Part shown: piece after piece, positions 11,302 to 64,000 of the stretch
How positions within the stretch are numbered: position 1 is the first letter of the stretch
Layout: each line of letters begins with the position of its first letter
NCBI GenBank assembly: GCA_964577595.1
Contig: CAZNZK010000004.1
Location: 27,294 to 91,293 of the forward strand
Direction of reading: 5' to 3'
DNA: 64,000 bases
Source: an uncultured Candidatus Saccharibacteria bacterium
GTDB lineage: Bacteria; Patescibacteriota; Minisyncoccia; Phycocordibacterales; JAKAEA01
The notes under the pieces: generated by a model
The model's database searches: none
Told to the model about the DNA's origin: nothing
The model's input: the letters and a program-made list of their open reading frames with translations, nothing else
Translations under genes and position numbers: made by a program

Positions 11302-14046
11302 ATGCCACCACTGCAACACTTCACCACAAAAGCAAAAGAAGCCATTAGAAAAGCTCACGAGCTAGCTATTGAGCGTGGTCAAAATCACGTTAATCCGCTC
11401 CATTTACTGGCGGCTTTAATATTGCAGGAAGAAAGCATGGTTAGTGCCATCTTAGACAAGCTTGAAATAGACACTATTCTGTTAACCGATTCCCTAATGG
11501 AGTCTATTGAAGGCCCGGAAGGCGGCTCCACGCTTAATCCTTCCTACCAAATTTACCTAACGCCGGACTTAGCCCAGGTGCTTGCCGACTCCGAGCGGGT
11601 GGCAAAATCGCTCAATGACGAATTCATTTCCACGGAACACCTTTTTGTGGCCATGCTTGACGTGGCTGGCGCCGCTCGCGACTTGCTCGCTCGTTTTCGC
11701 CTCAACCGCGACGCGGTGGTAAAGGTCTTGGAAGAACTGCGTGCCAACAAAGTGACCGACGTTCACGGGCCAAAAAAGCCGAAAGCGCTCGCTCGTTACA
11801 CTCGCTCGCTCACCAAGCTCGCCGCCGAAAACAAGCTTGATCCTGTTATTGGCCGTGACAATGAAATCATGCGCATCATTCAAATTCTTTCGCGCCGCAC
11901 CAAAAATAATCCCATTCTCATTGGCGAGGCCGGTGTTGGTAAAACCGCCATCGTTGAGGGCTTGGCTCTGCGCATGGCCCAGGGCGATGTACCAGAATCT
12001 TTGAAGGACAAAGAGCTGGTATCGCTTGACCTAGGCGCGCTGGTGGCGGGGACAAAGTATCGCGGCGAATTTGAAGAGCGTCTCAAAAATATTCTTAAAG
12101 AAATTGAGCGCGCGGCTGGCAAAATCATTCTTTTTATTGATGAAATCCACACTATTGTGGGCGCCGGCGCGGCCGAGGGCTCTTTGGACGCCTCCAACAT
12201 GTTGAAGCCCGCTTTGGCGCGCGGTGAGCTCCGAGCGATTGGCGCCACCACCATCAAGGAGTATCAAAAGCATATTGAAAAGGACCCGGCTCTGACGCGT
12301 CGCTTCCAGCCGGTGTTCGTAAACGAGCCGTCCCTTGATGACACAGTCGCCATTTTGCGCGGTTTGAAGGAAAAATATGAGCTTTACCACGGCGTGCGTA
12401 TTACCGACGACGCCATTGTCGCCGCCGCCACTCTTTCTTCTCGCTACATCACTGATCGTTACTTGCCCGATAAAGCCGTTGACCTTATTGATGAAGCCGC
12501 TTCTTTTTTGAAAATCACTCTGGAGGATATGCCGCCGGTTTTGCAGGAAACGCATGCCAAAATTATGCGCTTGGAAATTGAGCGCGAAGCTCTTAAAAAG
12601 GAAACCACCAAAACCGCCAAGGACAGGGTGAAAATCATTGAAGCGGAAATCGGCAATCTAAAAGAGCAAACTTCCGAAATTGAGCTTAAGTGGAAAAATG
12701 AAAAAGAGACACTTGGCGAAATTAAAACCATCAAGAAAGAGCTGGAGCAGTCACGCTTGGAAGCTGAAAGCGCCGAAGCTCATGCCGACCTTGGCAAAGC
12801 CGCAGAAATCCGCTACGGCCGCATTCCCCAGTTGGAAAAAGACCTTGACCTTAAACTCAAACGCTTGAAGAAGCTGCAGAGCTCGCGCCGCATTCTGAAA
12901 GAAGAAATTATGGAGCAGGATGTTGCCGATGTGGTTTCGCGTTGGACGGGTATCCCCGTGGCTCGCATGCTTGAGGGCGAGGCCGACAAGTTGAGTCGTA
13001 TGGAAGAAGAGCTTCGCAAGCGCATTGTTGGTCAAGATGAAGCCGTTAAGAAAATCGCCGACACGGTGAAGCGTTCGCGCGCCGGCATTAGCGACCCTAA
13101 CCGCCCTATTGGCTCATTTATTTTCCTTGGCCCCACGGGCGTCGGCAAAACCGAGCTCACGAAAGCACTGGCAGAATTTATGTTTGATGACGAAAAAGCT
13201 CTCGTTCGCTTAGACATGTCTGAATTTATGGAAAAACATTCCATTTCCAAGCTTATTGGTGCGCCGGCCGGCTATGTTGGCTATGAAGAAGGCGGCAACT
13301 TTACCGAAATGGTTCGTCATCGCCCCTATTCCGTTATTCTTTTGGATGAAATTGAAAAGGCCCACCCTGAAGTGTTCAACGTGCTCCTCCAAGTGCTTGA
13401 TAATGGCCAGCTCACCGATGCTAAGGGTCGCCGCGTCAATTTCCGCAACACCGTCATCATTATGACCTCCAACCTCGGTGCCAACTACATTGATAAAATG
13501 CAAAAATTCGGCTTCGGCAAGGCGGAGAAGGGTTCCATTGAGGAAGATGGCCAAAAGGTAGATTACGAGCAAATAAAAGAGCGTGTCACCGAATCGCTCC
13601 GTGAATTCTTCCGTCCCGAGTTTCTCAACCGCATTGATGACACCATCATCTTTGATATCCTGAGTCGCGATGCTATCCGTAAAATCGTTGAAATTCAGGT
13701 TAATCTTATTCAAGCACGTTTGGCTGCCAAAGAAATCACTCTGGAAATTTCACCGGAGGTTGTGGATTATCTCGCCCGCGAAGGTTACAACCCACAATAC
13801 GGTGCACGTCCTTTGAAGCGTCTCATTCAAAATAAAATTCTCACCCCCGTTGCTTCCATGATGATTTCCAAAGGAATCATGCGCGGTGGGGCAGTGAAAG
13901 TGAGCTTGAAAACTGGTAGCGGCACCGCCAAAACGGGTTCAGCCGAATTCACCTTTGATGTTAAAAAAGGCAAAAAGGGCAGTCTCCTGCGTGAAGATGT
14001 TCTGAGTACTATAGAAACCAATATTCCCGAAGAAGTCAGAAAATAA
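11302..14046 (+). CDS. clpB: ATP-dependent chaperone ClpB
   Basis: 914 aa with two AAA+ modules ([15 protein letters not shown]; [15 protein letters not shown]) and a long middle coiled-coil domain, which distinguishes ClpB from ClpA. Confidence 0.9.
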
Positions 14047-18102: not shown

Positions 18103-18478
18103 TAAGTTCTTTAAATTCTTCTTCCTTCATAATACCTATTAGATTAGCCAAACGTTTTGTGTCAATTAATCGGAGTTGAGAAAGGATTACTGCGCCCCTA
18201 ATTAAATCTAGGGATGCAATGGGGAAATAATATTTTTGTAAATGGGTCGCCACCGCTCTATTCGAGGTTGTTACGGGTAGTACCCAGCATATATCTTTAC
18301 TAAACTTTCTAAAAATAATAATAGGGCGAGCAAATTCTTTCGAGTCCCCATCTTGTTCTGAGCCGATATTTATGCCGAGGTAGCAAAACCAAATTTCTCG
18401 TTCATGAAAAAATGGCCGATTCGTTTTCGCCTCAATAATTTTCTTCTTTTCGCTCCACTTTTGAAAATCTTTTTCCAC
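18074..18478 (-). CDS. MazF/PemK-family (CcdB/MazF fold) toxin-like protein with no adjacent antitoxin
   Basis: …REIWFCYLGINIGSEQDGDSKEFARPIIIFRKFS…ICWVLPVTTS…ILSQLRLID… parallels E. coli MazF (GDLIWVDFDPTKGSEQAGHRPAVVLS…CLCVPCTTQ…ADQVKSI). It is paralogous to 56725..57078. Confidence 0.55.
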   Translation of the reverse strand: MEKDFQKWSEKKKIIEAKTNRPFFHEREIWFCYLGINIGSEQDGDSKEFARPIIIFRKFSKDICWVLPVTTSNRAVATHLQKYYFPIASLDLIRGAVILSQLRLIDTKRLANLIGIMKEEEFKELTKRLKALLP

Positions 18479-28635: not shown

Positions 28636-28697
28636 GTTTTTACCTCATTTTTCACTTTCTTTCCAGGGGCTTTTATGCTATACTAAACGCACAACAA

Positions 28698-31536: not shown

Positions 31537-32565
31537 ATGACCAAAAAACTCATATTTACAGCCATTATTTGTGCCATCGTTGTTGGCGCTTTCAGCGTGT
31601 CTGTTTCTAACGCCTCAGCCTGTAGCTCAGGTTGCTATGGTTACGGAAACCATTATACGTACGATTACGATCACACTTCTAATTGTAGCTGTACTCATCC
31701 AACACCGGCTCCAACGCCTGCGCCTACTCCAGTGCCCCCGCCGGTAGTTACTCCGCCGGTCTACAATCCTCCGGTATATAACCCGCCCGTTTACAATCCT
31801 CCTGTCTATAACCCACCTGTATACAATCCACCAGTGTATAACCCTCCGGTCTACAATCCTCCGGTTGTTTACCAAGCTCCGATTGTGTATCAGGCCCCGA
31901 TTGTCTACCAAGCTCCAGTTATCCAAACGTATGCTCCGCTTAGCGTAACATGTCAGGCTAATCCCGTTCACGCTACTGTTGGTAGCACGATTACGTGGAC
32001 GGCCATCATCTCTGGTGGTAATGATTCCTACAATGGTTACAATTCCTACGGTTATAACACCTATAACCCGTACAATAACGGTAGCTACTACAATGATTCG
32101 TACAACGGTTCCTATAACGGCGGTTACTCCCTCACCTGGACCGGTACTGATGGTTTGGGTAACAATGGCAGTACGATCATTTCCAAGACCTATGTGACTC
32201 CGGGCCAGAAAGTGGCCACTGTCACGGTTTACGAAAATGGTCAGAATGTGACTGCTAGCTGTGCCAGCTATGTTGGTGCGCCTATCGTCACTCCGTATGG
32301 TGGTTCTACACAGCGTGTCTACTTGAATCAGGTTCCGTATACCGGTGCCGGTAGTACTACGAAGGTTGTTCTCTTTCTTGCCATTATGGCCGCTTGGAGC
32401 GCCTTGGTTGCTTACGTCATTATGAAGCGCCGCGCCTCTGCCACTTCCACGACTGCCCGTTTGGCCGCCGCCGGTATCACTACGACAGCCGCTCCCACTG
32501 CAGAAACTTCCAGCAACTTCTTGACCAACTACGTCGCCAAGCTTCGTAATCAGGCCAATCAGTAA
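31537..32565 (+). CDS. Secreted surface protein with Pro-rich tandem repeats and a C-terminal sorting-signal-like segment (VPYTG + TM + KRR)
   Basis: Signal peptide; (PPVYN)x7; (YQAPIV)x3; a Tyr/Asn/Gly-rich block; then LNQVPYTGAGSTTK-VVLFLAIMAAWSALVAYVIM-KRR and a further ~40-aa tail. Confidence 0.65.
   Translation: MTKKLIFTAIICAIVVGAFSVSVSNASACSSGCYGYGNHYTYDYDHTSNCSCTHPTPAPTPAPTPVPPPVVTPPVYNPPVYNPPVYNPPVYNPPVYNPPVYNPPVYNPPVVYQAPIVYQAPIVYQAPVIQTYAPLSVTCQANPVHATVGSTITWTAIISGGNDSYNGYNSYGYNTYNPYNNGSYYNDSYNGSYNGGYSLTWTGTDGLGNNGSTIISKTYVTPGQKVATVTVYENGQNVTASCASYVGAPIVTPYGGSTQRVYLNQVPYTGAGSTTKVVLFLAIMAAWSALVAYVIMKRRASATSTTARLAAAGITTTAAPTAETSSNFLTNYVAKLRNQANQ
31754..31920 (+). repeat. Coding tandem repeats: seven 15-nt units (PPVYN) then three 18-nt units (YQAPIV)
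   Basis: ccnccngtntayaay units read directly from the sequence. Confidence 0.8.
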
Positions 32566-34599: not shown

Positions 34600-34992
34600 A
34601 TGCCTACACTACAGGATGTTGTAAACAAAATAGACGGTCTTCCTACGAAGCAAGATGTTATAAGTATAATAGACAGTAAGATAGGGGGTCTTGCAACCAA
34701 GCAAGATGTCATGAATAAAATAGATGGTCTCGCAACCAAGCAAGATGTTACGAATAAGAGGCTAGATGGTCTCGCGGCAAAGCAGGATGCTATGAGTAAG
34801 CAGATTAGCGATTTTGTGGCTATAACCGAACAGCGGTTTAATGATGTGGATAACCGTCTTGATGTGATTGAAACAATTTCGGCTCAAATGCAGGAGGTGT
34901 TACAAGAAAAGTTTGTCAAAATAGATACCCTTACCACTTCAATCGTAAAACACGAAAAGCGGATTTTGAAACTGGAAACAAAGTGTGCCTAA
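34600..34992 (+). CDS. Hypothetical coiled-coil protein with four KIDGL(A/P)TKQDV repeats
   Basis: 130 aa with ~33-nt coding repeats. Confidence 0.45.
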   Translation: MPTLQDVVNKIDGLPTKQDVISIIDSKIGGLATKQDVMNKIDGLATKQDVTNKRLDGLAAKQDAMSKQISDFVAITEQRFNDVDNRLDVIETISAQMQEVLQEKFVKIDTLTTSIVKHEKRILKLETKCA

Positions 34993-40812: not shown

Positions 40813-40892
40813 GACAAATCAATAATCCCCAAAAGTCCCCGCAAGGGGCTTTTTGATGGGCTGGTATGCTATACTAGAAGCAAAGTTCTGCA

Positions 40893-41825
40893 ATGGCCAA
40901 CCGGCACCTTTCACGTTCGTTAGTTCTACAATCTCTCTACGAGTGGGATTTCAACCCCGATGGAAAAAAGCCAGGAAAGAATGAAGGCCGGGCCGATATT
41001 GCTCCTATAATTGCCCGCAATCAGAAAGAATTTGGCGAAGGTCAAACCGATGAGCATTTTGCTGAAAACTTGGCTCGGGGTGTTTTGGCTAAGCAAAGTG
41101 AGCTTGATACTATTATTGCCAAGGCCGCTCCGGATTGGCCGCTGGATAAAATCTCGGTTATGGACCGCAATATTCTGCGTATCGGTCTTTACGAATTGCT
41201 TTTTTCCGATAGGGCAGAGGTGCCAGCCAAAGTGGCCATTAATGAGGCCATAGAGCTGGCAAAAGGCTATGGAGGCGACACTTCCGGTCGGTTTATAAAC
41301 GGCGTTTTGGGTGCGGTGTATAAAGAAATCGGCGAGCCAGGCAAGGATGAAATCTCTAAGAAAGTCGGAAAGGGTGTGCCGGGAGCACCCAAAAAAGAAA
41401 TTCCCATTCAACACTTGGGTGGCGCTGTGGTTTACGCTCGTGAGGGTGATGAGGTGTACTTGGCTTTGGTGCACGATGTCTTTGGTCACTGGACGTTAAC
41501 AAAAGGCGGCATTGAAGCCGAAGAAAAAGTGGAGCAGGGCACCTTGCGAGGTGTCACAGAAGAGCTCGGCCTCAAAAAACTCACCATTAAAGAGAAATTG
41601 GACGAAAATACCTACGTTGCCTACAGCCCGGAGAGTGGCAAGAAGAAAAAGCACGTTACCTATTTCCTGGTTGAGTCGCCATTTGCGGAACTAAAGCTTG
41701 AAGAAAAGGGTGGCTTGGATGACGCGAAGTGGTTTAAGATGAAAGATATTCTGGAGTTGAATTTTTATAACGATATTTTGCCGATAGTTACCAAGGCGAT
41801 TAATTTGATTTTAGCCCAAAAATAG
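40893..41825 (+). CDS. nusB: NusB antitermination factor fused to a C-terminal Nudix hydrolase domain
   Basis: NusB core (RSLVLQSLYEWDF…DRNILRIGLYELLF…AINEAIELAKGYGG) then a Nudix box GGIEAEEKVEQGTLRGVTEELGL (GX5EX7R[G]VxEExGL) in a single 310-aa ORF. Confidence 0.75.
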   Translation: MANRHLSRSLVLQSLYEWDFNPDGKKPGKNEGRADIAPIIARNQKEFGEGQTDEHFAENLARGVLAKQSELDTIIAKAAPDWPLDKISVMDRNILRIGLYELLFSDRAEVPAKVAINEAIELAKGYGGDTSGRFINGVLGAVYKEIGEPGKDEISKKVGKGVPGAPKKEIPIQHLGGAVVYAREGDEVYLALVHDVFGHWTLTKGGIEAEEKVEQGTLRGVTEELGLKKLTIKEKLDENTYVAYSPESGKKKKHVTYFLVESPFAELKLEEKGGLDDAKWFKMKDILELNFYNDILPIVTKAINLILAQK

Positions 41826-41843
41826 CGTACAACGTATCTACAT

Positions 41844-42539
41844 ATGCCGAAAGATCTCTCCCTATTTGAAAAAGGAATCGGCGTGGAGTTTAAGGATAAA
41901 AACCTTTTGCGCCAAGCTTTTACCCACCGCTCGTTTTTGAATGAAAACAAGGGGTCCGATTTGGCCGACAACGAGCGCTTGGAATTTCTGGGTGACGCTG
42001 TTCTACAGTTGGTGGTTACCGACCACCTTTTTGGCCAGTATGGCGACAAGCCAGAAGGCGAGCTCACTGCTTACCGCTCGGCCTTGGTGAACGCACAAAC
42101 GCTCAGTAAGGTGGCTTTGGATATTGGCATGAATGACTATTTACTGCTTTCGCATGGCGAGCGGCGCGACACTGGCCGGGCTCGCAGTATTATTCTGGCG
42201 AATGCTTTTGAGGCGATTGTGGGAGCGATTTATTTGGATGGTGGCTATGCTGTTGCCGCTGGCTTTATTGCCGCCAAAATCTTTTCACTTATTCCTGATG
42301 TGGTGGCTGGCAAGCTCTGGCTTGACGCCAAGAGCCGTTTTCAGGAAGCTGCCCAAGAACACGCGAGCACCACACCTGTCTATAAAACCACTAAAGAAAC
42401 CGGCCCCGACCATGACCGTATTTTTACCGTTGGTGTGTATTTAGCCAAAGAGCTCGTGGCTTCAGGTGAAGGGCCAAGCAAGCAGGATGCCGAGCAGGAA
42501 GCGGCTCGCAAGGCGCTTGAAAGCCGCGGCTGGCTCTAA
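41844..42539 (+). CDS. rnc: Ribonuclease III
   Basis: Signature ERLEFLGDAVLQLVVTDHLF plus a C-terminal dsRBD. Confidence 0.9.
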   Translation: MPKDLSLFEKGIGVEFKDKNLLRQAFTHRSFLNENKGSDLADNERLEFLGDAVLQLVVTDHLFGQYGDKPEGELTAYRSALVNAQTLSKVALDIGMNDYLLLSHGERRDTGRARSIILANAFEAIVGAIYLDGGYAVAAGFIAAKIFSLIPDVVAGKLWLDAKSRFQEAAQEHASTTPVYKTTKETGPDHDRIFTVGVYLAKELVASGEGPSKQDAEQEAARKALESRGWL

Positions 42540-42604
42540 GGGGTGCGGTTAGGGGCAGGCACTATTTTTTAAAATCATGTTCCGACAGAAAGTCCTTTTA
42601 GGCG

Positions 42605-42870
42605 GGGTACAGAAAATGCTCTAAAAACCTGTCAAATCTGGCAAAAAATTAATTTTCTTCCCGTAGAAGCCCTAACTAAAGTGCTTTTTTACCATGCAAA
42701 ACATATGCGAAAATATGCATATGTTTTTTTGTGATGCAATGTGGTAGGCGGTGGCTTCACTTAGTCATCTCCAAAATCAAAAAGATGAAGAAAAAATGAA
42801 AACTCTCATTTCTTGAGTGCTTTTATGTAGGTGCCCGAAAAGGCGTTTCTAAAAACTCATCAGAGAACGA
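42605..42870 (+). repeat. Copy A of a ~260-bp hairpin-rich intergenic element (also at 51850..52105)
   Basis: About 80% identical to copy B. Shared blocks: aaaac(c/t)tgtcaaat…ttttcttcccgt…, aaacatatgc(g/a)…gcatatgttt (palindrome), gtgatg(c/t)aatgtgg…ggtggcttca(c/t)ttag(t/c)catctccaaaat(c/a)aaaaagatgaagaaaaaatgaaaa. Confidence 0.75.
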
Positions 42871-42929
42871 GCGGATGTGTCATAATTAGCCGAAAGAGCT
42901 TTTTTCTTATATAATTCGGGGCATATTCC

Positions 42930-45236
42930 ATGCGTCTCAAATCTCTGGAAATCAGCGGGTTTAAATCATTCGCCAAGAAAACGGCGTTAGAATTTGGCAC
43001 GGCTATTACGGGCATTGTCGGCCCCAACGGCTCCGGCAAAAGCAATGTGGCGGAAGCCTTTCGTTTTGTGCTCGGTGAGCAGTCTATGAAATCGCTTCGC
43101 GGCAAGCGCGGCGAGGATTTAATTTTCAATGGCGGGGCGAGCGCTGGCCGGCAAAATCGGGCCAGTGTGAAGCTGGTTTTTGACAATACCGACCGCGCTT
43201 TGGGGCTGGATTTTGACGACGTAACGCTTGAACGCGTGGTGCACCGCGATTCGGCCAATGAGTATTTTATTAATGGCTCGCCGGCGCGCCTTAAAGACAT
43301 CGTTGAATTGCTTTCCGGCGCGCACATTGGCGCTTCTGGGCACCACATAATTTCCCAGGGCGAAGCCGACCGTATTTTAAATGCGAATTTGAAGGAGCGT
43401 CGCGAAATGATAGAAGATGCGCTCGGCTTGAAAATTTATCATTATAAGCGTGAGGAAAGCGAGCGTAAGCTTGAGAAAACCGCTGAAAACATTGGTCAAG
43501 TGGAGAGTTTGCGCAAGGAAATTGCCCCGCACTTGCGCTTCCTGGAAAAGCAGATGGAAAAGGTGGAGAAAACAGAAAAAGTGCGCCAGGATTTGCTAGA
43601 GCGGGCTAAAGAGTATTTTAAGCGCGAAAGCATTTATGTGCGGGTGCAAAACGTGCGCATTCAGGAAGAAGAAGGGCCGCTTCTCAAAAATAAACACGCC
43701 TTGGAGCAGGAATTAAACGCCGCAAAAGCGGTATTGGAAAAAGCCGCAGGGCGCGATGGCAAGCAAGATGCTACCACTGCCGCCCTTTTAGATGTTGAGA
43801 AAAAACTGGCAACGGTGCGGGCCGAGCGCGAGGAGCTTTCGCGCCATGTAGGCCGGATTGAAGGGGAAATCGCTTCCGAGGAACGAGCTATTCGCCGTGA
43901 GGAAGCTATGGCCAAAACCCGCGCCGGCCAAACGGTACCGCTTGCAGAAGTAGAATCTGCTATTGCCACTATTAATGAGCGCTTGCAAGAAGCGGAAACC
44001 ACCGGCGACCCGAGTGTGTTTGCAAAAATCGCCAGCGGCATCAAAGAATTTCTCTCGCAATTTTTGCATCGCTACCGCGAGGGCACCAGTGAAAATGCTG
44101 TGGGAGCTATTGCCGCCAGCCGGCTTGAAATAGAGCGCCTAGCAGGCGAGCAGAAATCCGCCGCCCTGAAAACGCAGGCCCTGGCTAAGGCGGAAAGCGA
44201 TCTCATTGCCGATACCGAAAAACTCCGCCAGCATATTGAAAAGGAGAAGGATAGCAATCGCGACGCTGAAAAAGCCGTGTTTCGTATCATGGCTGAGCAT
44301 AATGAGCTTATTTCCAAGCTGGCCGGTGTGCGGGCGCGCCAGGAAGTTTTGACGGCAATTGAAAATGCATTTAAAAATGACTTGGGTGACATGGCCGCCA
44401 TGGCCGGCCGGGCTATTGTGGATTTTGACCAGCACCAGCTGGCTAACCTTTCTGATGATGAAGTGGCCGCCGAGCCGCGTGCTGAGCAGGAGGGCCGCCG
44501 CAAACTTTTGGAGCGCCTCAAAATCCGCATTGAAGAAGCGGGCGCGGGCAATAGCGACGACATCACCAAAGAATATAAAGAAGCCAAGGAACGCGACGAG
44601 TTTTTAGCGCGTGAGCTTGCCGACTTGGCCAAATCTGCCGAAACTTTGCGTATTTTGATTGCTGACTTGGCGGAAAAACTAGATACCGACTTCAAAGCCG
44701 GCGTCACTAAAATTAATGAGCAGTTCGGTCAATTTTTCGCCCTCATGTTTGGCGGCGGCGCGGCCGAGCTTTTGGTAGTGAAAGCGGCATCGCGGCCGAA
44801 GCGCAAAAATGACACTGACGACCTTGCCGATATTACCGGCGAGAGCGACGGTGAAGAAATGGCGGAGGCCGAAGAAAGCGAGGAGGGAATTGACATCAGC
44901 GTCAATTTGCCCAAAAAGCGCATTAAAGGCTTAGCTATGCTCTCTGGCGGCGAGCGCGCGCTCACGAGCATTGCCCTCCTTTTCGCCGTCTCTCAAGTGA
45001 ACCCGCCACCTTTTATTATTTTAGACGAAACCGACGCCGCTTTAGACGAAGCCAATTCCCGCAAATATGGCGACATGATAGAAAATCTTTCCAAATATTC
45101 CCAGCTCATTCTCATTACCCACAACCGCGAAACCATGTCGCGCGCCGGCATTCTTTATGGCGTCACTATGAGCTCTGAAGGCGCCTCCAAGCTTCTCTCT
45201 ATTAAATTTGACCAGGCTGTAGAGGTGGCGAAATAA
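42930..45236 (+). CDS. smc: SMC-family chromosome-segregation ATPase (short, hinge-less form)
   Basis: N-terminal Walker A (GIVGPNGSGKSNV), long coiled-coil, and C-terminal signature/Walker B (LSGGERALTSIALLFAV…IILDETDAALD). 768 aa. Confidence 0.65.
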   Translation: MRLKSLEISGFKSFAKKTALEFGTAITGIVGPNGSGKSNVAEAFRFVLGEQSMKSLRGKRGEDLIFNGGASAGRQNRASVKLVFDNTDRALGLDFDDVTLERVVHRDSANEYFINGSPARLKDIVELLSGAHIGASGHHIISQGEADRILNANLKERREMIEDALGLKIYHYKREESERKLEKTAENIGQVESLRKEIAPHLRFLEKQMEKVEKTEKVRQDLLERAKEYFKRESIYVRVQNVRIQEEEGPLLKNKHALEQELNAAKAVLEKAAGRDGKQDATTAALLDVEKKLATVRAEREELSRHVGRIEGEIASEERAIRREEAMAKTRAGQTVPLAEVESAIATINERLQEAETTGDPSVFAKIASGIKEFLSQFLHRYREGTSENAVGAIAASRLEIERLAGEQKSAALKTQALAKAESDLIADTEKLRQHIEKEKDSNRDAEKAVFRIMAEHNELISKLAGVRARQEVLTAIENAFKNDLGDMAAMAGRAIVDFDQHQLANLSDDEVAAEPRAEQEGRRKLLERLKIRIEEAGAGNSDDITKEYKEAKERDEFLARELADLAKSAETLRILIADLAEKLDTDFKAGVTKINEQFGQFFALMFGGGAAELLVVKAASRPKRKNDTDDLADITGESDGEEMAEAEESEEGIDISVNLPKKRIKGLAMLSGGERALTSIALLFAVSQVNPPPFIILDETDAALDEANSRKYGDMIENLSKYSQLILITHNRETMSRAGILYGVTMSSEGASKLLSIKFDQAVEVAK

Positions 45237-45248
45237 GCTACATAAAAA

Positions 45249-47033
45249 ATGAATACTCCCAAAATTACAGTCGGTAAGTTACTCAGGGCTTTTTGGAACG
45301 GTTTAGCTCCTCAAAAGTGGTTTTTTCTTACAACCATTGGCACGTTTGTCGTTGGAAGCATTTTGTACGTTCTAGTACCAACTTTTTACAAATCCTTTTT
45401 TGATCTGATTACCAATACGTCCGACAAAGTTTCCGCTGTTCCCGCATTACTGAAAATCATCATTGAAATTCTGATCATTAATGGCACTTCAACGGTGCTG
45501 TATTGGATTGGGATGTTCACCGCAAGTTACTACGATCCGAAAACACAAGCGACATTGCGCCAGCAGGCATTTTCCTACATTATCGACCATTCCTACACCT
45601 ATTTTGCCGATAATTTTACAGGTTCAATTACGTAACGGGTTAACCGTTATGCCCGAGCTTTTACTCGCCTTAACGGGCAACTTTTGTGGACAATTTTACC
45701 TCTTTCTATATATGTTGCTGGCGTAACGATAGTGCTCTGGTTTGTTAATCCCATTTACTCCTTAATTGTTGTTGTGTGGATTGGTTCCTTTTGGACGATA
45801 AACTACTTTTCTTCCAAATGGAAATTGAAGTATGACATTGCCGCTTCAGAAGCTGACTCCAAAAGCACGGCAATTCTCTCCGACAGCATTACCAATCACT
45901 CGGTAGTCCAACTTTTTGCTCGGAGCAAGGCAGAATCGACACATTTTACACAGCTAACAGACCTCCAAGCCCGCAAAGAGGCCTTTACGGGATATTTGTC
46001 CACGCTTATCAATGTTGTTTGGGGCACGCTTAACGTAACGGTGGAATTTTTGATTTTCTTTTTGCTGATACATTATTGGCAGGAAGGATTAATTACTATC
46101 GGCACATTTGTACTGGTCCAGGTCTACTTTCTGGGCTTGGCTACTCGATTGTGGGATTTGACGCGCATTGTTCCGGAAGTGTACCAAGCCTTTGCCGATG
46201 CTAAGGAGGCACTTGAAATGATGACTACTCCATACGAGGTACGAGATATCCCTCATGCTAAAAAACTAACGATTACCGATGGCGTCATCGAGTTCGGTAA
46301 TATAAGCTTCAGTTTTAATGAAACACGAGAGGTTCTTAAGGGTATCACTCTGAAAATTCAAGCCAAAGAAAAAGTGGCTCTCATTGGTCCTTCCGGCTCG
46401 GGCAAGTCAACGCTCGTACGGCTTCTTATGCGACTCTATAACCTGGAAAGCGGCGCTATTTTTATTGATCACCAGAACATCCAACAAGTAACACAAGAAA
46501 GCTTGCGCCTGAATATTGCTTTTGTACCTCAAGACCCAACTCTTTTCCACCGAACGATAGCGGAAAATATCCGGTATGGTAAACCAGATGCAACCGACGA
46601 GGAGGTTGTCGCAGCGGCAAAACTCGCTCATTGCGATGAATTTATTACAGAGTTACCGTCGGGCTACAAAACGTATGTTGGCGAGCGAGGCATCAAACTC
46701 TCCGGCGGCGAGCGCCAGAGGGTGGCAATTGCCCGGGCGATTTTAAAAAACGCCCCAATCCTTGTTCTCGACGAAGCCACGTCAAGTCTGGATTCACACT
46801 CAGAGGCTCTTATTCAGGACGCTCTGAATGTGCTCATGAAGGATAAAACGGTTATTGTTATTGCTCACCGTCTTTCAACTATCAGAAAAATGGATAGAAT
46901 AATCGTGCTTAAAGAAGGTGCAATTATTGAGGAGGGATCACACGAGATGCTTTTGGAAAATTCCACTGGTCTGTATAAAAAACTTTGGGATCTTCAGGCG
47001 GGGGGATTCCTTAAGGAAGATATTGTTGGGTAA
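45249..47033 (+). pseudogene. ABC exporter (fused permease + ATPase, MsbA-like) interrupted by one in-frame TAA at 45633..45635
   Basis: ORFs 45249..45635 and 45684..47033 share one frame. Translation across the stop reads …FADNFTGSIT*RVNRYARAFTRLNGQLLWTILPLS…, a continuous ABC transmembrane-domain sequence. The NBD carries LSGGERQRVAIARAIL and Walker motifs. Confidence 0.65.
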
Positions 47034-51146: not shown

Positions 51147-51821
51147 ATGCGGTTTCACATTATTTCACTTTTTCCGAGTGCTTTTGATTCGTATTTAGGC
51201 GAGTCAATTTTGAAGCGGGCGATTGAAGACGGCAAAATTGCCGTGCGTTTTTATAATCCCCGTGATTTTGCCGCGGGCAATAGCGGCCGGGCGGTGCGGG
51301 TTGACAAGCGGCCTTATGGTGGCGGCCCGGGCATGGTTATTGAGGCGTTGCCGGTGGTGAAGGCTGTTGAAAAAGCTCTTGCGGCAGTAAAAAAGAATAA
51401 AAAAGCCAGGGAAAAAATAAAGACGAAAATAATTTGGCTGGCGCCAGGTGCCAAGCAGTTTGATACTGAGTATGCGGGTGCAACTGCGCAAAAATATACC
51501 GATATCATCATTATCTGTGGCCGCTATGAAGGCATTGACGCGCGGGTCAAAAAAATATTCAAATGTGAGGAAATTTCCATTGGGCCTTTTGTGCTTACGG
51601 GTGGTGAATTACCAGCCATGCTCATTATTGATTGTGTTAGTCGCCAAGTTTCCGGCGTTTTGGGTGATTTCAATTCTTTGGAGGAAAGTCGTGTGGCTAG
51701 TCACGATGTATACACTCGGCCGGAAAAGCTTGTCTACAAAGGTAAAAAGTACAACGTGCCGCCGATTCTGCTTTCTGGCCATCAGGCTAAAATTGAGGAG
51801 TGGAAACAAAAGCAGGGTTAA
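51147..51821 (+). CDS. trmD: tRNA (guanine37-N1)-methyltransferase
   Basis: MRFHIISLFPSAFDSYLGESILKRA…, SPOUT fold motifs. Confidence 0.9.
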   Translation: MRFHIISLFPSAFDSYLGESILKRAIEDGKIAVRFYNPRDFAAGNSGRAVRVDKRPYGGGPGMVIEALPVVKAVEKALAAVKKNKKAREKIKTKIIWLAPGAKQFDTEYAGATAQKYTDIIIICGRYEGIDARVKKIFKCEEISIGPFVLTGGELPAMLIIDCVSRQVSGVLGDFNSLEESRVASHDVYTRPEKLVYKGKKYNVPPILLSGHQAKIEEWKQKQG

Positions 51822-51849
51822 AGGGGTGTTCTGGCCGGGGCTCTTTGTG

Positions 51850-52105
51850 TGGCTACAGAAAAGTGTTAAAAAACTTGTCAAATTTCTTGAAAAACAAATT
51901 TTCTTCCCGTTCGAGCCTTTTAATCAGGGCTTATTTTGCACATAAAACATATGCAGAAAAACGCATATGTTTTTCTGTGATGTAATGTGGCACGGGGTGG
52001 CTTCATTTAGCCATCTCCAAAATAAAAAAGATGAAGAAAAAATGAAAATCCTATCTTTTGAGGGTTTTTCTGTAGGTACCCAAAAAGGTTGTACTGATTC
52101 TGGTG
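51850..52105 (+). repeat. Copy B of the ~260-bp intergenic element
   Basis: See copy A. Located between trmD and the PIG-L deacetylase gene. Confidence 0.75.
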
Positions 52106-52138
52106 TCAGATAAAAATTGCTATATAATAAGAGTGATG

Positions 52139-53053
52139 TGGAATACTCGACGAATTCTGTTCATTATTTTCGCTATTATTTTCATTTTTGTGCTGATTGC
52201 CGGCACGCATGCTTTAGTGAAGCGCTATCAGGGTGTGACCTTGCCGCCGAATGCTCCGGGCACCACTTTGCCTGGCAATGGCCCTATCACTATCATTCTC
52301 GCTCCGCATTTTGACGACGCTGTTCTGCCGCTCGGCGGCCTTCTAGCCCGGCATGACAGACCGGCTCTTGTCGCCACGTTTTTCACCGGAGCACCCGCTG
52401 TGGCTACGAGCACCGATTGGGATACTCGTGCTGGCTTTACCGATAGTACTATCGCCACGAACGTTCGTATGGCTGAAAATCAAAATGCGCTAGGGAAGCT
52501 CGGCGTCGTCGGCGAAAATTACGGCTATCTTGATTTGCAATATGGTCGGCCTATTTCAAGCGATATTCTTGAGAGTACTATTGCCCAAGATATTCAGGCG
52601 CTTTTGGTCGCCAATACTGGCCGCGCGGTGAATATATATGGACCTTCCACTTTCGGTGCTCCCGCTGAAATGACTCATCCCGACCATCAAATTCTTCACG
52701 ATGCTTTTACGGACGTTGCTCAGAATTTTCCTGCCAAAAACGTGCGATTCTTTTATTATGAGGACTATCCTTATGTCACGCATTTTGCCAGCACGTCGGT
52801 AATCTCTTTGCAAAAATATCTGGAAAATAGTACCGGCTTTTCTTTAAACGAAATAGATATTCCACTTTCAGCCGGCCAGGTTGCCGCGAAAATTTCTGCG
52901 CTGAAGCAATATGGCTCGCAAATTCAAGCCTTTACTTCGGACGGTAAGGACTTGATAGGCGGCTCGAAAAAATACACCTCTACCCGCTGTGCCGGCCAGG
53001 CCTGCGAGGTTGTCTATCAAATTATTCCAGGAACTTCTGGGTTGCCGCAGTAA
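52139..53053 (+). CDS. LmbE/PIG-L family deacetylase with an N-terminal membrane anchor
   Basis: …ILAPHFDDAVLPLGG… and …THPDHQILHD… motifs. Start at ATG 52139 (MWNTRRILFIIFAIIF…) preferred. Confidence 0.6.
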   Translation, partial: WNTRRILFIIFAIIFIFVLIAGTHALVKRYQGVTLPPNAPGTTLPGNGPITIILAPHFDDAVLPLGGLLARHDRPALVATFFTGAPAVATSTDWDTRAGFTDSTIATNVRMAENQNALGKLGVVGENYGYLDLQYGRPISSDILESTIAQDIQALLVANTGRAVNIYGPSTFGAPAEMTHPDHQILHDAFTDVAQNFPAKNVRFFYYEDYPYVTHFASTSVISLQKYLENSTGFSLNEIDIPLSAGQVAAKISALKQYGSQIQAFTSDGKDLIGGSKKYTSTRCAGQACEVVYQIIPGTSGLPQ

Positions 53054-61695: not shown

Positions 61696-62184
61696 ATGAA
61701 AAAAATTGTATCCGAACCCGCTCATAACGGTAACCAAAAGAAAGAACTCATTCTCTACACCGACAAGCGGGGAAACGTAGAACTACACGCCGATGTTGAA
61801 AAAGAGACAATTTTGGCGACCCTTGATCAAATCGCTCAAATTTTTGGCCGTGACAAATCGGTCATTTCCCGTCACTTGAAAAATATATTTTCCAGTGCCG
61901 AATTGAATCGGGATTCAGTTGTTGCAAAAAATGCAACAACTGCCACGGATGGAAAAACGTATATCGTGGAATATTTTAATCTTGACGCAATACTTTCCGT
62001 CGGTTATCGCGTGAATTCAAAACAAGCCACAGCTTTCCGTCAGTGGGCTACGAGAACGTTACGTGACTATTTGGTCAAAGGAATTGTGTTAAATACCCGT
62101 CGCATTCATCGGTTGCATAAAAAAGATGCCAAAAAATTCAAACAAACATCAGCAAAATCAGCCATAGTGTTACTGGTAGCTTAA
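61696..62184 (+). CDS. RhuM-family protein (N-terminal domain only)
   Basis: …ELILYTDKRGNVELHADVEKETILATLDQIAQIFGRDKSVISRHLKNIF…YFNLDAILSVGYRVNSKQATAFRQWATRTLRDYLVKG… follows the RhuM pattern. Confidence 0.65.
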   Translation: MKKIVSEPAHNGNQKKELILYTDKRGNVELHADVEKETILATLDQIAQIFGRDKSVISRHLKNIFSSAELNRDSVVAKNATTATDGKTYIVEYFNLDAILSVGYRVNSKQATAFRQWATRTLRDYLVKGIVLNTRRIHRLHKKDAKKFKQTSAKSAIVLLVA

Positions 62185-62191
62185 AGGAACA

Positions 62192-62963
62192 TTACTTCCA
62201 CATCACCTCGGCTGGAGCATCTTTGCCGGCTTCAAGGGTTTCTATTATTTTTCCGGCGACTAATTCTGGCGCGTCGGCAACGGGCATCGCTTGCCCATTC
62301 GGCCCCGTTGCCCGCTCACGCGAAACCATACCTTCCATACCCGGCGCACGCACGGCATTCTTGCCAAAATCCGTCGCGGTGAGGCCCGGATGCACCACCG
62401 AAACGACAATCCCATCCTTGGCCAATTCTACCCGGGCAGTGAGCGAGAGGGCATTCAGCGCATATTTCGTGGACGCATAGCCGCCCAAATACGGAAAGGT
62501 ATTCTTGGAAACCATGGAGCTCACGTTCACAATCTGCCCGCGCAGGCCCGTACCACCTTTCTCGCTCGCTGAAACCCCGTCTTCCACCGGCTTCTGTTTG
62601 CGCATGAGCGGAATGATTTCCTGCATCGCCGCCAGCGGCCCCACCACGTTGAGCGCCCACACGCTCGCATAATCTTCCAAATTAATATTTTCTACCGGCC
62701 CATACAAGCCAACGCCCGCATTGTTGACGATAGCATCAACCCGGCCGAATTTTTTCTCCACCGTCGCCACCATTTTCTTCACATCGGCATTCTTGGCCAT
62801 GTTGGCCGGTAGCGCCACCGCGCCAGGCAAGGCCTTTTCCAGAATGGCCAGCTTCTCCCTGGAACGCGCGACCAGCACCACTCGCGCCCCTTTGGCCACC
62901 AAAAGCTTTGCCGTGGCCTCGCCAATACCCGCCGACGCATATATCTTAGAAAGAAAGCAGTGA
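62192..62963 (-). CDS. Short-chain dehydrogenase/reductase (SDR), N-terminus uncertain (possible frameshift)
   Basis: Degenerate Rossmann (KIYASAGIGEA…), NNAG, and S…YxxxK (…YASTKYA…) motifs. The long ORF-track N-terminal extension is antisense to 62985..63530 and is junk. No canonical start is in frame; the ATG at 62986 is +1 out of frame across a CTTTCTTTCT tract. Confidence 0.55.
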
Positions 62964-62984
62964 ATGTTGTAAAATACTACCCAT

Positions 62985-63530
62985 ATGCCCGACGACACTA
63001 CTGCTACTACTGACGATGGAACGGAGGGGGAACAAGACGTGAGCGAGACGTCTACGCCAACAATACCCGCGCCAGCGTTAACACCCGCCATAACGCCAAC
63101 CCTAAGGGGAGCGGAGCCGGAATCGCCACCTGAACCCGAACCGCAACCCCAACAGGACGCGTCGGCGGCGGATGTGGCTAATTCACCCCCAGAAGCCCCA
63201 GAACCGACCACGGAACCCACCCCAGAACCAAGCATAGGCGCGGCTCCTGCGGAGGTGCGGGAGAACACCACCCCGATGGCGCCATCTAAAAGCTGGGCAC
63301 TTTCCCTGCTGGCCTTGGCCCGCGCAAAAATGCAGTTTAAAAAGCAGAAAAAGCTGGACGAAATTATGGCGTTGGCGGGGCAGAGGCGGGTGGTGGTGAG
63401 CCGCGACATTGAGCTCCTGCTCCATGTGTCGGCGGCAACGGCGACGCGATACTTGGAGGCATTGGTGAAAGCGGGCCGCCTGCACCCCTCGGGCGCGTTT
63501 CGGCATACGAAGTATGAGGTGGTGGGGTGA
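62985..63530 (+). CDS. Hypothetical protein with an acidic Pro/Thr/Glu-rich disordered N-terminus and a C-terminal winged-helix-like domain
   Basis: …LDEIMALAGQRRVVVSRDIELLLHVSAATATRYLEALVKAGRL… looks like an HTH. The antisense frame shows typical G/S-rich junk. Confidence 0.45.
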   Translation: MPDDTTATTDDGTEGEQDVSETSTPTIPAPALTPAITPTLRGAEPESPPEPEPQPQQDASAADVANSPPEAPEPTTEPTPEPSIGAAPAEVRENTTPMAPSKSWALSLLALARAKMQFKKQKKLDEIMALAGQRRVVVSRDIELLLHVSAATATRYLEALVKAGRLHPSGAFRHTKYEVVG

Positions 63531-63594
63531 GTTTGCGCTACATTTTCCACCAGTACACAAGATTGTTTTTCGACTGTCATGCGGTATACTAGCC

Positions 63595-63810
63595 ATGCTA
63601 ATGGATCGCAAGTCTCTATTTCTGAAGACCTATGCTAATTTGCCGCGGGGTAGCCGTGAGGAGATTGTGGCTGTAGTAGAAGGTGAGCCATATACCTGGC
63701 AATCGGCTAAGCTTGAGGTTGAGCAAGATACGCCGATTGGCACTAAAATTTTGGAAGTGTTGGTAGCACTCAAAATTCTCCATGAAAGAACAACAGAAAA
63801 ACCAAATTGA
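63595..63810 (+). CDS. Hypothetical small protein
   Basis: 71-aa ORF (MLMDRKSLFLKTYANLPRGSREEIVAVVEGEPYTWQ…) with no RBS. It overlaps the next ORF by 29 nt. Confidence 0.25.
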   Translation: MLMDRKSLFLKTYANLPRGSREEIVAVVEGEPYTWQSAKLEVEQDTPIGTKILEVLVALKILHERTTEKPN

Positions 63811-64000
63811 TGAGGTTATTGCCGACCCAGAACTTCGCAAACAGCTAAAGGCCATTGTACTGGAGCGGGCTATGGCCATGCCGGCGAGCTTGCGGGTGGC
63901 TATTGGCTCGGACCACATCTCTCAAAAAGAGCTCGTGAAGCATATCCAGGATGAAGATGAGATTGGCAAACAAATGATGGCTATTGACCTTGGCTTTTTG
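63782..64000 (+). CDS. Hypothetical protein, 5' partial (runs off the window)
   Basis: MKEQQKNQIDEVIADPELRKQLKAIVLERAMAMPASLRVAIGSDHISQKELVKHIQDEDEIGKQMMAIDLGFL…. Confidence 0.35.
   Translation, partial: MKEQQKNQIDEVIADPELRKQLKAIVLERAMAMPASLRVAIGSDHISQKELVKHIQDEDEIGKQMMAIDLGFL

Follow-up and report, generated by a model that had tools for sequence, protein, structure and literature searches.

A previously undescribed family of intergenic repeats, probably MITE-like, in a genome of the Parcubacteria (Paceibacteria)

Why should a hairpin-rich stretch of some 260 bp be found twice in the gene spacers of one bacterial genome? The question is raised by 64,000 nucleotides of contig CAZNZK010000004.1 (the window, that is, the whole stretch of DNA that was analysed), in which a first-pass annotation had noticed two similar copies of such an element, one upstream of an smc-like gene and one upstream of a gene for a PIG-L deacetylase. 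Three readings had been offered: a duplicated cis-regulatory leader, a family of small RNA genes, or a MITE-like element (MITE: miniature inverted-repeat transposable element). We find that both copies belong to a larger family with inverted ends and a conserved central hairpin, and that their sites are empty in related species. The third reading fits best: with a probability that we put at roughly 0.58, the copies are members of a MITE-like family of interspersed repeats, small and non-autonomous, which is specific to this lineage of Parcubacteria (Paceibacteria). The leader reading is not supported, and small RNA genes remain a minority possibility.

Four copies with inverted ends

Reciprocal blastn of the spacer against the window aligned positions 42605-42843 (copy A) with 51851-52088 (copy B) on the same strand, over 241 nt and with 78.4% identity (E 2.8e-51), close to the value of about 80% over some 260 nt that had been estimated by the first-pass annotation. 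Fainter homology between A and B reaches about 42578-42866 and 51826-52104 in a global alignment. Inside the 64-kb window a third copy was found neither by blastn with a word size of 7 nor by nhmmer. The source contig was extended by about 10-19 kb on each side, first via the proteins at the window edges and then via SerS, and two more copies (C and D) were found there by blastn and with an nhmmer profile, which detected four copies in 82 kb (E 1e-54 to 5e-82). The next 9 kb after the completed copy D contain no fifth copy, and none was found in about 100 kb of the corresponding loci of relatives. Counting beyond the window gives four copies in about 91 kb of visible sequence, not two. Copies A and B were delimited from inverted repeat to inverted repeat by blastn, nhmmer and an alignment of all four copies.

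42587..42850, plus strand: copy A, 264 nt, GC content 0.37
51837..52092, plus strand: copy B, 256 nt
Locus L023, about 18186-18454, minus strand of that locus: copy C, upstream of the window by about 5.5 kb and flanked by a gene for 162 amino acids and an ArsR-type helix-turn-helix (HTH) gene
Locus L063, about 11703-11975: copy D, downstream of the window by about 9.5 kb; serS and a small open reading frame (ORF) precede it, and a gene for 308 amino acids follows

Copy A is preceded by the RNase III gene rnc (41844-42539, stop at 42539) and followed by the SMC_N gene smc (42930-45236); copy B lies between the TrmD gene, with its stop at 51821, and the PIG-L gene (52136-53053). The common orientation and the intergenic position of the pair are as first described, with the rnc|smc and trmD|PIG-L spacers as their sites. 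All four copies are on one strand of the contig, each between two genes that are transcribed in that direction, and on the strand bearing the copies the GC skew is positive across the window. For four copies placed in co-directional spacers, the chance of all agreeing with the genes in orientation is about 1 in 16, and four copies are too few for significance. The flanking gene sets have no function in common. A and B recur identically in assemblies made independently by ENA and JGI, and C and D were also found in those of Logan; the assemblies of the same organism are 99.7-100% identical to the window sequence. Since the same sequence is present in independent ENA, JGI and Logan assemblies, the repeat is no assembly artefact.

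The copies are 256-273 bp long and have a GC content of 35-40%, compared to 48% in the window. The end motifs ACAGAA and TGTAGGT are 214-217 nt apart in all of them. Two subfamilies can be distinguished, A/B and C/D, each with 76% identity within the pair and about 60% identity between the pairs. Identity among the copies differs along the element: it amounts to 72-88% at the 3' end, 75-86% in the central hairpin (H2), 57-89% in the core after H2 and 55-71% at the 5' end, and the 5' arm is only 37-45% identical between the subfamilies. At its two ends the element carries inverted repeats that are imperfect and about 20-38 nt long (5' CCTTTTNGGGTACMTACAGAAAA ... TTTTCTGTAGGTACCCNAAAAGG 3'). Their 16-nt core, GGGTACCTACAGAAAA, occurs three times in the window, exclusively at element ends, where 0.35 occurrences are expected. 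The arms were located by alignment of one arm with the reverse complement of the other.

42587..42628, plus strand: copy A, terminal inverted repeat at the 5' end (AGAAAGTCCTTTTAGGCGGGGTACAGAAAATGCTCTAAAAAC)
42813..42850, plus strand: copy A, terminal inverted repeat at the 3' end (TTGAGTGCTTTTATGTAGGTGCCCGAAAAGGCGTTTCT); no other segment of the family is conserved as well
51837..51874, plus strand: 5' terminal inverted repeat of copy B; 51841-51862 against 52066-52087, 81.8%
52058..52092, plus strand: 3' terminal inverted repeat of copy B, whose minus strand matches GGGTACCTACAGAAAA exactly at 52066-52081
42698..42727, plus strand: central palindromic hairpin H2 of copy A, with a stem of 11 bp and an A-rich loop of 8 nt, followed by a terminator-like T-run to 42730
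51944..51973, plus strand: central hairpin H2 of copy B, with TTTTTCT after it
42728..42775, plus strand: conserved core that follows H2 in copy A (TTTGTGATG...GGCTTCA...CATCTCCAAA), predicted to form an irregular stem-loop (H3) with one-sided changes only
42779..42802 (copy A) and 52025-52048 (copy B), plus strand: block of 24 nt, AAAAAGATGAAGAAAAAATGAAAA, identical in A and B and not kept in C and D

The imperfect palindrome that had been reported as conserved is present at H2 of both window copies (AAAACATATGC-N8-GCATATGTTTT). The second block that had been singled out, the A-rich sequence GGTGGCTTCAyTTAGyCATCTCCAAAATmAAAAAGATGAAGAAAAAATGAAAA, was likewise found in A and B.

If both arms pair, they form a terminal helix (helix 1) of 19 column pairs, 88% of which are paired in the four copies, with no compensatory and eight broken-only pairs. 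According to the arm alignments this duplex is about 75% complementary and contains many transversion mismatches; its transition mismatches show no strand bias, 12 being G-U-compatible on the sense strand and nine on the antisense strand. As the helix varies by disruption only, it behaves like a pair of conserved end sequences, as would be expected of ends recognised by a protein, and not like a selected RNA stem. A cognate insertion sequence (IS) would have to match CCTTTTNGGGTACCTACAGAAAA at its ends. A likeness of these ends to those of the ISL3 or Tn3 family was considered and is not claimed.

No ORF is conserved across the four copies, in agreement with the initial view that the short ORFs differ and the element is unlikely to be coding. 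The 48-aa ORF of copy B (51967-52113), which is annotated by public gene calls, is stopped after eight codons in copy A, and a search of 5.8 billion proteins returned no homologue other than the ORF itself; judged by its sequence, this 'protein' is a spurious ORF created by the repeat. Two further candidates were rejected. A minus-strand mini-ORF with a GGAG box, of 23 and 28 amino acids in A and B, shrinks to 11 codons in C and to one in D, and a plus-strand ORF reading MKKK* is confined to A and B.

Empty orthologous sites in related species

The best matches of RNase III and SerS are found in metagenome-assembled genomes (MAGs) of Parcubacteria/Paceibacteria; an organism with a SerS of 88% identity is a candidate for a closer relative. 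Five related assemblies from about three species (L003, L004, L005, L006 and L018; RNase III 74-77% identical) were compared with the window, together with a more distant relative (L007; RNase III 70%). The spacer between rnc and smc measures 390 nt here, as opposed to 10 nt in L004 (TAA-TTTTATTTGC-ATG), 12 nt in L006 and 15 nt in L018. From trmD to the PIG-L gene the distance is 314 nt here, whereas the orthologous genes overlap or are separated by at most 21 nt in L003-L005 and by 35 nt in L006. The orthology of the flanking genes is documented by protein identities of 75% for SMC, over its full length, and of 58% for PIG-L. In L007 the spacer between rnc and smc has 150 nt and no similarity to the element, yet it carries a TATATAAT box of its own just before smc. 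Because the orthologous junctions are tight and empty in the relatives, we regard both window copies as lineage-specific insertions.

Empty orthologous sites are among the properties by which MITEs are known. The size of the copies is within the range of 50-800 bp, their inverted ends are at least 10-15 bp long, they have no coding capacity and they are dispersed; small size, inverted ends, AT-richness, lack of coding function, dispersed copies and self-folding are the descriptors of prokaryotic MITEs and related small repeats such as Correia, RUP, BOX, SPRITE and ERIC (PMC10969869, PMC11602168, PMC3049150). It was the combination of a dispersed, AT-rich, non-coding family with terminal inverted repeats and empty orthologous sites that brought us to prefer the MITE-like reading among the three offered. 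We assume that each copy reached its place by insertion into a short spacer between housekeeping genes of one direction (rnc|smc, trmD|PIG-L and two further sites of the contig), most likely through a transposase that recognises the conserved ends in trans. Once inserted, the unit would be transcribed passively and form the 3' tail of the upstream gene, and in A and B the hairpin H2 together with its U-run could act as an intrinsic terminator. The downstream genes would presumably use a -10 box of the TATAAT type located beyond the element.

Several observations weigh against the MITE-like reading. A target-site duplication (TSD) consistent across the four copies was not found when all combinations of boundaries were scanned; the direct repeats at the boundaries are chance-level matches at single copies, such as TTCTGG around copy B. 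Direct repeats decay over time (PMC10969869), and the copies here are old. The Pfam lists for the 91 kb contain no transposase, and no IS with matching ends was found there. All near-identical strains (99.7-100%) carry all copies, and because of this lack of presence/absence polymorphism mobility is not demonstrated. Moreover, copies with only 60-78% identity have kept a constant length, an internal core and a compensated hairpin, and the single orientation of all four relative to the genes hints at selection on the copies. Finally, nothing was returned when 185,579 species genomes were scanned for GGTGGCTTCANTTAGNCATCTCC as an exact pattern; a degenerate-pattern scan of the species genomes, with the element core translated as a pseudo-protein for the query, gave 213 matching stretches of which none was confirmed; and three scans of viral contigs (IMG/VR) gave chance matches only. 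In the same way, a degenerate scan of metagenomes gave 599 matching stretches, none of them confirmed, from a collection that evidently lacks the JGI sample carrying the organism. When metagenomes were scanned again with a less strict pattern for the hairpin, three chance matches resulted, and blastn against phages and plasmids gave no match. Such pattern scans need near-exact matches of 20 nt and would miss members of 60-80% identity, so that the restriction of the family to this lineage is provisional. Without a consistent TSD, a cognate transposase in the 91 kb and polymorphism within the species the repeat is MITE-like and not a proven MITE. Its uniform orientation, constant length, kept core and compensated hairpin leave room for a use by the host or for mobilisation as a single strand.

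The central hairpin and the alternative readings

Hairpin H2 is 95.5% paired, and three of its 11 pairs have changed in a compensatory manner among the four copies: one from A-U to G-C via a G-U intermediate, one from C-G to U-A and one from A-U to G-C. These changes indicate that formation of the hairpin has been selected, either as RNA or as single-stranded DNA.

One alternative, which we consider unlikely, is based on RNA. In this case the copies would be lineage-specific structured elements that are used by the host in cis and transcribed with or after the upstream gene, or they would be small RNA genes of about 90-270 nt; they may serve as a stabiliser in the 3' untranslated region (UTR), as a processing site for RNase III or RNase E, as a terminator or as an operon insulator. 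The three compensatory pairs of H2 speak for such a use, as do the orientation of all four copies along both flanking genes, the preservation of core and length in spite of about 60% overall identity, and the changes in H3, which lead only from G-C or A-U to G-U on the sense strand. Folding points in the same direction: in all three copies tested the sense strand (minimum free energies -68.5, -77.9 and -78.3 kcal/mol; z -2.6, -5.4 and -4.5) folds better than the antisense strand (z -1.8, -4.1 and -2.8). However, covariation of the whole structure does not exceed the shuffle control (109 of 500 shuffles reach the same level, four sequences being too few), the terminal helix has no compensatory change, the transition mismatches of the arms are without strand bias, and RNAalifold predicts an alternative antisense structure of similar energy (-15.2 vs -18.9 kcal/mol). 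No known RNA family was recognised in any of the four copies. With Rfam 15 at gathering threshold the window gave tRNAs only, and the single copies produced chance-level matches far below the gathering scores (A and B at E values up to 10, C and D up to 1).

A scan for intrinsic terminators scores H2 on the sense strand, with a stem of 12 pairs and TTTTTTT in copy A and nearly so in copy B (TTTTTCT), which favours a role as host RNA. Against this, the U-tract after H2 is gone in C (CATTTGTGG) and D (AACTTGTGG), and this loss rules out termination as a function of the whole family. Consensus scans of both strands found no promoter inside the element that is conserved across the four copies, and copy D, by eye, follows an apparent strong terminator of the upstream gene that the plus-strand scan did not list; both findings argue against a host RNA. 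Near the 5' end a TTGACA hexamer, the complement of a conserved TGTCAA, was seen by eye in A, B and C without a -10 partner, and a TAAAAA box is missing in copy C. With no conserved promoter, a U-tract confined to A and B and no Rfam match, the small RNA family among the readings first offered is left as the minority possibility mentioned above.

Candidate -10 boxes are found outside the element, close to the start codons of the downstream genes.

42910..42915, plus strand: -10 box TATAAT of smc, 14 nt before the ATG
52121..52128, plus strand: -10 box TATATAAT of the PIG-L gene, preceded by TGC, 7 nt before the ATG at 52136

At copies C and D, -10-like boxes were recognised by eye about 5-6 nt before the ATG. 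Provided that these boxes are promoters, the element is located outside the 5' UTRs of the downstream genes, as the boxes sit beyond it. This position and the unrelated nature of the neighbours (smc, a PIG-L deacetylase gene, an ArsR-type HTH gene and a 308-aa gene of unknown function) speak against the duplicated cis-regulatory leader that had been considered by the first-pass annotation. The element is missing from the same sites in related species and hence is no ancestral regulator of its flanking genes, which counts against the RNA alternative.

The boxes are not peculiar to the repeat. TATAAT-like sequences (often TGnTATAAT, TATACT or TAAAAT) are present 6-14 nt before the start codons of several genes that lack a Shine-Dalgarno sequence, among them gyrB, nusB-NUDIX and the gene that follows copy D; examples are located at 42910-42915 (smc), 52121-52128 (PIG-L), 28660-28691, 40851-40882 and, in L063, at about 12005-12023. 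Repeat D8 (TATGCTATACTA) is one such -10 box. This arrangement suggests that extended -10 promoters and leaderless or near-leaderless mRNAs are in use in this organism.

A more elaborate form of the RNA alternative, and in our view a rather doubtful one, combines these elements. The copies would be domesticated RNA modules of about 265 nt, specific to Parcubacteria and transcribed in sense orientation at the 3' end of upstream genes. The duplex from end to end and the internal hairpins would then act as insulators by processing or termination, and ancestral operons (rnc-smc, trmD-PIG-L) would be split into separately promoted, leaderless units.

Another alternative, which we hold to be improbable, is a palindrome-bearing element related to PATEs or REPINs, moved as single-stranded DNA by an HUH enzyme such as the TnpA of IS200/IS605 or a RAYT, and not a MITE moved by cut and paste. 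It would account for the absence of a TSD, the compensated H2 suits single-stranded DNA as well as RNA, and all four copies are on the same strand, that with positive GC skew. Elements of the IS200/IS605 type show such a strand bias. In contrast, the conserved hairpin is central here instead of being subterminal at each end, IS200/IS605 ends have no long terminal inverted repeats like those of this element, the sequence 5' of the copies shows no evident tetra- or pentanucleotide target that is conserved, and neither a Y1/HUH transposase nor a RAYT gene is present in the Pfam lists for the 91 kb.

The palindrome ACATATGC-N8-GCATATGT could also be an operator or the site of a nucleoid-associated protein, in which case the copies would be protein-binding modules that act at the level of DNA upstream of promoters. 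The copies end 40-80 nt before the next start codon, the half-sites are highly conserved in A and B, and copy C adjoins an ArsR-type HTH gene. Nevertheless, the half-sites of C and D have changed by compensatory pairs (A-U to G-C, C-G to U-A), which indicates that pairing is preserved and not a fixed recognition sequence; the palindrome comprises 30 of about 265 conserved nucleotides only; and the terminal inverted repeats are left unexplained. We regard this possibility as very improbable. A local segmental duplication or an assembly artefact, suggested by the mere two copies within the window at a distance of 9.2 kb and in the same orientation, hardly deserves consideration, as A and B are only 76-78% identical, the flanking genes are not duplicated, the copies recur in independent assemblies (A and B in ENA and JGI, C and D also in Logan), and with C and D just outside the window the initial concern about a solitary or artificially duplicated pair has lost its ground.

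Neighbouring features and comparison with known repeats

Some features of the surrounding sequence are recorded here in their own right. An ABC transporter (ABC_membrane and ABC_tran domains) is split into 45249-45635 and 45684-47033, corresponding to 128 and 449 amino acids in the ORF listing and to 128 and 433 in the ENA calls; in the JGI assembly of the same organism it is one intact gene for 594 amino acids (L002 8015-9799). The split reflects either a frameshift, a difference between strains or an error of assembly. Nine tandem units of 15 nt at 31723-31865, within the ORF 31537-32565, encode a proline-rich, PPVYN-like repeat with a weak extensin-like match below the Pfam cutoff, and three to four tandem units of 39-51 nt (...GGTCTCGCAACCAAGCAAGATGT...) are found at 34612-34800 in a small ORF beside dnaE. 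A fusion of NusB with a NUDIX hydrolase (40893-41825), a single protein of 310 amino acids, is kept in all relatives fetched. SerS (L063 10001-11561) has 414 amino acids compared to 420-430 in almost all relatives listed and is followed by a separate ORF of 63-76 amino acids; the shorter protein and the separate ORF suggest that the 3' end of serS may be altered or frameshifted.

Other genes in the vicinity could be of mobile origin. A large serine recombinase of 537 amino acids (Resolvase/Recombinase/Zn_ribbon_recom) is called at L063 17491-19104 of the ENA assembly, downstream of the window by about 18.5 kb; the JGI assembly of the same organism has no such call at the matching place (L064 16108-18056), and the gene may belong to a strain-variable integrated element. 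A cluster of small genes with Pfam matches of the T4SS_pilin/TrbC type extends over positions 135-1431 of the window and L023 11115-13329, and RhuM-like genes with a PIF1-type helicase are located at about 61700-64000 of the window and L063 28-5905. The T4SS_pilin/TrbC cluster and the RhuM-like and PIF1-type genes are possible mobile or conjugative remnants near the repeat copies.

Parcubacteria, members of the candidate phyla radiation (CPR), have small and compact genomes, and the repeat family shows that spacers between housekeeping genes can be enlarged there by about 300 bp each, tight gene junctions being turned into spacers with a hairpin or a terminator-like structure. If the repeat is mobile, it marks a transposition system in the lineage, and in practice it would be a cause of contig breaks and of spurious calls of small ORFs in MAGs. 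If it is used by the host, the copies are candidates for a cis-acting RNA, and domesticated modules of the kind outlined above would constitute a new class of RNA where, in this lineage, very few regulatory RNAs are known. Either way the interest is moderate and mainly descriptive.

Which of the known repeats does the family resemble? PATEs, which are derived from IS200/IS605, and REP/REPIN sequences have in common with it the lack of a TSD, a conserved hairpin and a uniform strand; they differ in that the hairpin is central here, the inverted ends are long, and the available sequence holds no HUH transposase or RAYT. SPRITE repeats are likewise interspersed, AT-rich and close to the ends of coding sequences, with a hairpin and a U-rich tract that could terminate transcription of the upstream gene (PMC3049150). 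A TSD could not be established for them either, and they are thought to act on co-transcribed genes via their secondary structure (PMC3049150). In contrast to the inverted repeats of about 20-38 nt described here, a SPRITE has only AAAA/TTTT termini, an 18-bp duplex and typically less than 200 bp; SPRITEs are enriched between convergent genes, whereas the four copies are located between co-directional genes and only two of them have a U-tract.

With Correia and ERIC elements, substrates of RNase III or RNase E, the repeat shares the long end duplex that it would form if transcribed. RNase III cleaves such duplexes in Correia-containing mRNAs (PMC10969869, PMC3049150). The duplex is imperfect here, about 75% complementary and with many transversion mismatches; that copy A follows directly on the RNase III gene rnc is a coincidence.

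The closest likeness is to prokaryotic MITEs such as Correia/CREE of Neisseria, RUP of S. pneumoniae and the QMITEs of Coxiella, which are elements of 50-800 bp with inverted repeats of more than 15 bp, non-coding, AT-rich, intergenic and present in several copies. Their transcripts are predicted to form stable stem-loops (PMC10969869, PMC11602168), and filled and empty sites can be compared between related genomes as has been done here. The present repeat differs from them by the absence of a visible TSD, of a cognate IS or transposase in the 91 kb and of sequence similarity to any known element, by its old and diverged copies and by their single orientation. No description of such repeats in small-genome Parcubacteria was found in the literature searched. 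The element first noticed upstream of smc and the PIG-L gene is a member of a previously undescribed repeat family that is, by comparison with these systems, ordinary in kind.

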